Shown: positions 4,509 through 4,782 of the stretch, one piece after another | Layout: each line of letters starts with the position of its first letter | How positions within the stretch are numbered: position 1 is the stretch's first letter | Source of the DNA: Escherichia coli | GTDB lineage: Bacteria > Pseudomonadota > Gammaproteobacteria > Enterobacterales > Enterobacteriaceae | Strand: one strand, 5' to 3' | Length of the DNA: 64,000 bases | Assembly: GCF_013122565.1 (NCBI RefSeq) | Contig: NZ_CP053258.1 | Notes under the pieces: model-generated | Told to the model about the DNA's origin: nothing | The model's input: only the letters and a program-made list of their open reading frames with translations | Databases searched by the model: none | Position numbers and translations under genes: made by a program

Positions 4509-4565
4509 ATTTCCCTCCGGTCATTGGGTGGACTCTTAAAGGGTAGACGCTGATAAATAACAGGC

Positions 4566-4593
4566 AAAAAAAAGCCGACTCATCAAAGTCGGC
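4566..4593 (-). terminator. Rho-independent terminator on minus strand about 190 nt downstream of zntB stop
   Basis: hairpin gccgactttgatgagtcggc followed by T8 on minus strand. Confidence 0.55.
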
Positions 4594-4782
4594 GTCGTAC
4601 GAATCAATTGTGCTATGCAGTAATTCAAAAAAGGAAGTAAGACAATATGGAGCGCAACGCCCATCGCTTGACGTTGCATTCACCTGCAAGGGAGATATTG
4701 CCCTGAATGGGTAGAGAGTTTATTGACTTCGCTCAAACTTTGCGGCGTTTTTGTATACAGACAGCCGGAAAAATTGCTTTTG

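Follow-up and report, generated by a model that had tools for sequence, protein, structure and literature searches.

The small RNA FnrS, studied since 2010, forms the RNA arm of the FNR regulon and explains how an activator protein can indirectly repress the genes of aerobic metabolism; the papers of Durand and Storz (2010) and of Boysen et al. (2010) are said to be the founding ones. Other oxygen-responsive Hfq sRNAs, such as ArcZ and the AniS of Neisseria, also extend a global oxygen regulator to negative control at the post-transcriptional level. Additionally, several sRNAs are derived from 3' UTRs: CpxQ has no promoter of its own and is cut from its mRNA by RNase E, and DapZ and MicL are made from promoters inside the upstream ORF. 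Concerning E. coli K-12, fnrS is activated by FNR under anaerobic conditions, with a contribution of ArcA (PMC11572966; PMC10993149; PMC3688515). The RNA is FNR-controlled and expressed upon the switch to anaerobiosis (PMC11572966), and it has been described as "strictly expressed under anaerobic conditions" (PMC10993149). It is Hfq-dependent, its duplex with the iscR 5' UTR is aided by Hfq, and it represses many mRNAs whose functions are aerobic or dispensable, the reported or candidate targets being sodB, gpmA, cydDC, adhP, maeA, marA, grxD and iscR (PMC11572966; PMC10993149; PMC3688515, Table 5).

The DNA presented here is a stretch of 64,000 nt from E. coli (contig NZ_CP053258.1), referred to below as the window, and its orientation is the reverse of that of the K-12 chromosome segment. 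We read the minus-strand element at 4566..4687 as fnrS, an independent gene for a 122-nt Hfq-dependent sRNA with an FNR-activated promoter and a trans-pairing seed, and we put the probability of this reading at about 0.97. The presence of FnrS at this locus is already known and its identity carries no novelty. Anaerobic induction, Hfq binding and target repression would be expected here from the literature on the identical K-12 RNA. The features of the region are presented in Table 1.

Table 1. Features between ynaL and zntB, in order of their position in the window.
Feature	Position	Strand	Basis and remarks
ynaL, 57-aa proline-rich small protein (MTTLIYLQIPVPEPIPGDPVPVPDP...)	4335..4508	-	ORF list; annotated as b4743
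fnrS, 122-nt sRNA FnrS	4566..4687	-	Rfam RF01796 match and identity with K-12 b4699
Rho-independent terminator, nt 95-122: stem-loop 4574-4593 and U8 4566-4573	4566..4593	-	Terminator scan
Second hairpin, nt 62-87	4601..4626	-	Folding and Rfam structure; 96% of cells paired, one pair with A-U to G-C compensation
Seed CUUACUUCCUUUUUU, nt 47-61, single-stranded and C/U-rich	4627..4641	-	Unpaired in the MFE, centroid and Rfam structures
SD-like AAGGAAG, 9 nt before ATG	4631-4637	+	Read directly; complement of the FnrS seed CUUCCUU
FnrS 5' hairpin, nt 1-46	4642..4687	-	Folding and Rfam structure; nearly invariant, few compensatory changes
19-codon antisense ORF MERNAHRLTLHSPAREILP	4647..4706	+	ATG at 4647, TGA ending at 4706; judged non-coding
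-10 hexamer CAATAT (-13..-8)	4695-4700	-	Read directly, assigned by position
FNR box TTGAGCGAAGTCAA	4723-4736	-	Match to TTGAT-N4-ATCAA with 2 mismatches; centre at -42.5 from fnrS +1
Spacer from zntB stop to FNR box	4737..4782	-	Poorly conserved, without intrinsic terminator
zntB, Zn2+:H+ symporter	4783..5766	-	TAA stop at 4783-4785; protein 100% identical to K-12 ZntB

Identity and genomic context of fnrS

The Rfam family RF01796 ('frnS') matched 4570..4687 (-) over the whole model (1-119 of 119) with 134.8 bits against a gathering score of 60 (E = 1.7e-25), and this match was reproduced when the whole window was scanned. The RNA is identical at 122 of 122 nucleotides to b4699 of K-12 (NC_000913.3, 1409129..1409250), which is located between zntB and ynaL/dbpA. 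A permissive E-value Rfam scan of 3800-6200 gave FnrS as the sole match, with no second RNA family in 4509-4565 or 4688-4782. Elsewhere, the window bears a second known sRNA, McaS/IsrA, at 8065..8160 (+) between smrA and abgR (Rfam RF00115, 118.4 bits against a gathering score of 42).

A preliminary description of the region, made from the letters alone, had placed the zntB stop at 4783, a gap of about 190 nt behind it, and the first clear terminator after zntB at 4566-4593 with its T8. All three agree with the ORF list, the stop codon as read and the terminator scan, with 189 nt between the stop and the base of the hairpin and 217 nt between the stop and the last T of the run. The small RNA that had been suspected in the region also exists, as a discrete sRNA that ends at this terminator and is FnrS. 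An sRNA candidate between zntB and dbpA had moreover been mentioned, and correctly so, as the K-12 annotation has fnrS (b4699) there. We take another candidate, C0343, to have been placed in the same zntB(ydaN)-dbpA region of E. coli. This former ncRNA candidate was removed from Rfam and is reported to encode a 57-aa protein (PMC5331693); YnaL, of 57 aa, has been detected as a protein (PMC6001520). By the matching length of 57 aa, C0343 is probably ynaL, and the candidate mentioned corresponds to FnrS and probably to C0343 as well. Both belong to the same intergenic neighbourhood, although C0343, if it is ynaL (4335-4508), lies outside FnrS.

The name zntB is used for the upstream gene in the annotation of both K-12 and the closest genome, and the gene order zntB-fnrS-ynaL-dbpA-ttcA is collinear with K-12. 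A 701-bp neighbourhood was found in 5393 of the 5426 complete E. coli genomes. Over 501 aligned nt, the window differs from K-12 by two SNPs, both outside the FnrS RNA. The first one, at 4691 (C here, T in K-12), falls at position -4 of the fnrS promoter and is probably neutral, as the segment -7..-1 is variable across genera (majority-base frequency 0.69 among the homologues listed). The second one is located at 4518 ahead of ynaL (G here, A in K-12), and the G extends the SD of ynaL, GGAGGG at 4513-4518. In the closest genome (NZ_CP042969.1, PGAP/RefSeq) ynaL, zntB and dbpA are listed, with no fnrS or other ncRNA in the zntB-ynaL gap, and the sequence is identical. The region looks empty because the PGAP annotation of that genome omits fnrS, and the missing entry is an annotation gap and no biological difference.

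On the far side of zntB, 13 nt upstream of it, a 16-codon ORF at 5780..5827 (-) is identical to K-12 b4773 and represents ynaN, possibly a leader peptide for zntB. In K-12, the Rac prophage is inserted beside ttcA. In the segment 1..2803 of the window, uspF and ompN stand immediately before ttcA (1868-2803), as they do in the closest genome, and the strain appears to be without the Rac prophage at the ttcA site.

Promoter, structure and conservation of FnrS

The FNR box has the form TTGAG-N4-GTCAA, and its centre is at the class II activation position. A putative FNR site is present at the published position, given likewise as -42.5 for fnrS by Myers et al. (PMC3688515, Table 1). Grainger et al. 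(PMC1802558) presented the 24-mer AAAGTTTGAGCGAAGTCAATAAAC under an FNR ChIP-chip peak that was then labelled "dbpA", and this 24-mer is identical here. A strict sigma-70 scan of 4200-5000 revealed no promoter-like site on either strand; the fnrS promoter escaped it because, as a class II promoter that depends on an activator, it has no -35 element. Such a null result is as expected for an activator-dependent promoter, yet it is no positive evidence for one. The fnr gene itself is established at about 14290..15042 (+), only about 9.6 kb from fnrS, and a near-consensus FNR box (TTGACAAATATCAA, 1 mismatch) at 14257-14270, just upstream of the fnr start, fits the known autoregulation of fnr.

Concerning the structure, the stem of the terminator (4593..4574) consists of 8 bp, 5 of them G-C, with a 4-nt loop, and is followed by T8 at 4573..4566 (-); a hairpin succeeded by a long U tail constitutes a putative Hfq-binding module of the kind found in class I sRNAs. 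Terminator-like sites in 4200-5000 numbered 3, against 0.9 +/- 0.8 in shuffled sequences, and the other one on the minus strand (4662..4650) is a 5-bp stem with a poor tail inside the FnrS 5' hairpin. The MFE z-score of FnrS alone is modest (-1.67). Across the alignment of the homologues listed, 93.9% of the cells form standard pairs of the Rfam-type structure, against 30-43% when the partners are slid. Structural covariation, for which the preliminary description had asked as a check, was found in the form of compensatory changes in 7 pairs (4 of them in the terminator stem) among the homologues listed, with the caveat that the search pattern itself had fixed part of the 5' hairpin and that high conservation leaves covariation sparse outside the terminator.

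Homologues were sought with a degenerate 24-mer from the 5' hairpin, one genome per species, and at least 120 loci were obtained. At least 118 are true FnrS homologues, and 2 of the loci listed are chance matches (a cyanobacterium and Dechloromonas). FnrS is represented in Escherichia, Salmonella, Citrobacter, Klebsiella, Enterobacter, Serratia, Yersinia, Erwinia and Pantoea, as well as in Pectobacterium, Dickeya, Edwardsiella, Hafnia, Photorhabdus, Arsenophonus, Rahnella and Rouxiella. Conservation was expressed as the majority-base frequency over the 116 distinct sequences among the matches listed, aligned from -80 to the 3' end. It amounts to 0.49 in the spacer after zntB (-80..-50), 0.86 in the FNR box and 0.84 in the -10 hexamer; within the RNA it reaches 0.99 in the 5' hairpin, 0.92 in the seed, 0.94 in the second hairpin, 0.74 in the terminator stem-loop and 0.97 in the U tail. 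The step from 0.49 in the spacer to 0.86 at the FNR box means that selection begins at the box and not at the zntB stop. The box is found at fixed spacing, with at most 2 mismatches, in 114 of the 116 homologues listed. The most divergent FnrS among the matches listed belong to Arsenophonus (L022, L034) and Photorhabdus (L043), where the seed is GUAGUUUUUCUCAUAUU, hairpin 2 is replaced and the 5' hairpin is retained with compensatory C-G to U-A changes. This pattern, known from the sequences, suggests that the target set has shifted in these insect-associated lineages.

Neighbouring genes and alternative readings

In 109 of the 119 loci listed, zntB is located upstream of fnrS in the same direction, and its stop (positions taken from tblastn coordinates) lies 15-135 nt, mostly 69-135 nt, before +1. 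No intrinsic terminator was found between the zntB stop and fnrS in the window or in 105 of the 109 co-directional loci listed; hairpin-plus-T-run sites were detected in only 4 of those 109 spacers, mostly weak or overlapping the promoter, and the same scanner detected the fnrS terminator in 107 of the 109. The preliminary description was right that a zntB transcript has no nearer terminator, as that of fnrS is the first intrinsic one it meets. Since zntB itself lacks an intrinsic terminator, a shared one is probable, and zntB transcripts would probably run into fnrS and stop there unless Rho acts first. This arrangement favors an account in which the whole region is a long zntB 3' UTR and any sRNA is processed from the zntB mRNA, so that it would need no separate promoter; zntB transcripts that read through and stop at the fnrS terminator are indeed plausible as an additional RNA species. 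As the source of FnrS, however, we consider such processing highly improbable. The conserved FNR box, -10 and +1 all lie downstream of the zntB stop, whereas the sequence between that stop and the box is unconserved. The site is occupied by FNR in vivo (PMC1802558; PMC3688515), and FnrS is reported to be strictly anaerobic and FNR-dependent (PMC10993149; PMC11572966), where a constitutive zntB tail would behave otherwise. RNA-seq of Y. pestis revealed a discrete FnrS of ~120 nt after zntB (PMC3672283). Furthermore, in three Rahnella and three Rouxiella species among the loci listed, zntB is convergent with fnrS, with its stop ~25 nt beyond the fnrS T run. The FNR box, -10, +1 and RNA are retained in all 7 loci of these genera (Rahnella L025, L030, L088 and L115; Rouxiella L070, L086 and L121), and the upstream neighbour is divergent in 7 of 7, leaving no co-directional gene upstream; the locus of L025 (Rahnella inusitata) stops too close behind fnrS for zntB to be seen. 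Judged by gene order, the arrangement is a local inversion that keeps the 3' ends of zntB and fnrS together. Being convergent with zntB in Rahnella and Rouxiella, fnrS is an autonomous transcription unit, and the 3'-UTR-derived sRNA of the preliminary description gives way to one with its own conserved FNR-type promoter. Concerning termination, the Term-seq supplements of PMC7815308 hold no entry for zntB, fnrS or ynaL. The probable reliance of zntB on the fnrS terminator region, which recurs consistently among the loci listed, receives no emphasis in the literature consulted. A further consequence, which we regard as unlikely, would be that zntB-fnrS read-through RNA carries the full FnrS even in air, to be processed into an FNR-independent FnrS pool or to act as a seed-bearing mRNA or sponge, or else that FNR bound at -42.5 is a roadblock to zntB transcription; if true, either would tie zinc transport to the anaerobic regulon.

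On the other side of fnrS, the ynaL start follows the terminator by just 57 nt and ynaL precedes dbpA by 29 nt. The sigma-70 scan of 4200-5000 found no promoter-like site for ynaL-dbpA, and a promoter::lacZ fragment spanning zntB to dbpA had low, FNR-independent activity (PMC1802558). These observations speak for an element that mainly regulates ynaL-dbpA in cis, its hairpin and U8 being an attenuator whose read-through sets dbpA expression, and some ynaL-dbpA transcription may come from read-through of the fnrS terminator. As an explanation of the whole element, attenuation is nevertheless very unlikely. The RNA is conserved across Enterobacterales, whereas dbpA is found within ~300 nt of fnrS in only 36 of the 119 loci listed, all in the Escherichia-Salmonella-Enterobacter-Klebsiella part of the order (with Enterobacter sp. 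EA-1, L119, as an exception, where dbpA is 678 nt away), and ynaL was detected by tblastn in only 15 (Escherichia, Citrobacter, Salmonella, and single Lelliottia, Pseudocitrobacter and Mixta genomes). A cis role restricted to dbpA thus fails to account for the conservation, and the suggestion of a regulatory element upstream of dbpA did not hold in that specific form. An attenuator would also have no need of the most conserved parts, namely the 5' hairpin and the seed, and trans targets are documented (PMC11572966; PMC3688515, Table 5). The reading of the element as fnrS was weighed as well against a coding role of the opposite strand, where the 19-codon ORF with its SD, pointed out in the preliminary description, is present and yet fails as a gene. 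It has an ATG start, an SD-like motif at a 9-nt spacing and a first stretch of 14 codons identical in nearly all homologues listed, as a 19-aa micro-protein would; we find such a product barely credible. Those 14 codons are conserved because they lie opposite the invariant FnrS 5' hairpin, and past the FnrS +1 the ORF varies in length from 15 to >53 codons across the 118 homologues listed, and neither its stop nor its C-terminus is conserved. Any sRNA that is made to pair with SDs must show an SD on the opposite strand, and the AAGGAAG is the obligatory complement of CUUCCUU. The sigma-70 scan of 4200-5000 gave no promoter-like site on the plus strand, and the K-12 annotation has no CDS at this ORF, though small-protein screens added the neighbouring ynaL and ynaN. 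The ORF is also unremarkable in size, because 88 ORFs with a length of 20 aa or more fall wholly or partly in the 5 kb around it and ORFs this short are abundant by chance. From the aligned sequences, we judge it to be no gene and to mirror the 5' hairpin and the promoter of FnrS. An anti-SD-like sRNA seed always yields an "SD plus small ORF" on the opposite strand, which makes it a recognisable false positive for micro-ORF calls.

Predicted pairing with targets and comparison with known small RNAs

The following sequence of events is proposed for fnrS. Without oxygen, an active FNR dimer would bind the TTGAG-N4-GTCAA box and recruit RNA polymerase to a promoter with the -10 CAATAT and no usable -35. 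Transcription would start at G4687 and end at the hairpin and U8 (4566-4593), and the terminator with its U tail would serve as the Hfq-binding module of FnrS. The C/U stretch CUUACUUCCUUUUUU, or for some targets the 5' end, would then pair with the SD and start-codon region of mRNAs. Such pairing would block translation and lower the mRNA of functions that are dispensable anaerobically (sodB, maeA, gpmA, grxD, adhP, iscR and others).

Pairing was evaluated for the single-stranded region only, by duplex prediction of FnrS nt 43-62 with positions -35..+20 of five reported K-12 targets, and the background was set by 57 translation-initiation regions of long ORFs in the window (-7.9 +/- 2.0 kcal/mol). 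The predicted duplex energies are -10.2 kcal/mol for sodB, -11.1 for gpmA, -11.7 for maeA, -13.1 for adhP and -17.5 for grxD. All five predicted duplexes cover the SD and the start codon, and between 0 and 7 of the 57 background regions are at least as good. The FnrS 5' end (GCAGGUGA) also matches sodB at +12..+20. RNAduplex runs of the whole FnrS body against 80-nt translation-initiation regions gave loop-rich, meaningless duplexes and no separation from the background. The energies for nt 43-62 agree with an anti-SD-like seed that occludes translation, as a crude comparison of energies and no proof.

Compared with the other oxygen-responsive Hfq sRNAs, FnrS shares neither sequence nor locus with ArcZ or AniS, and AniS is a functional analogue only. 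The likeness to NarS, which is made from narK (PMC7038943), is one of setting: both sRNAs follow a co-directional ORF and end at a terminator that the mRNA most probably also uses, and NarS, as FnrS, is tied to FNR and anaerobic respiration. Their origin is different, as NarS has no promoter of its own and is cut from the mRNA by RNase E (PMC7038943), whereas FnrS has an activator-dependent promoter in the intergenic spacer.
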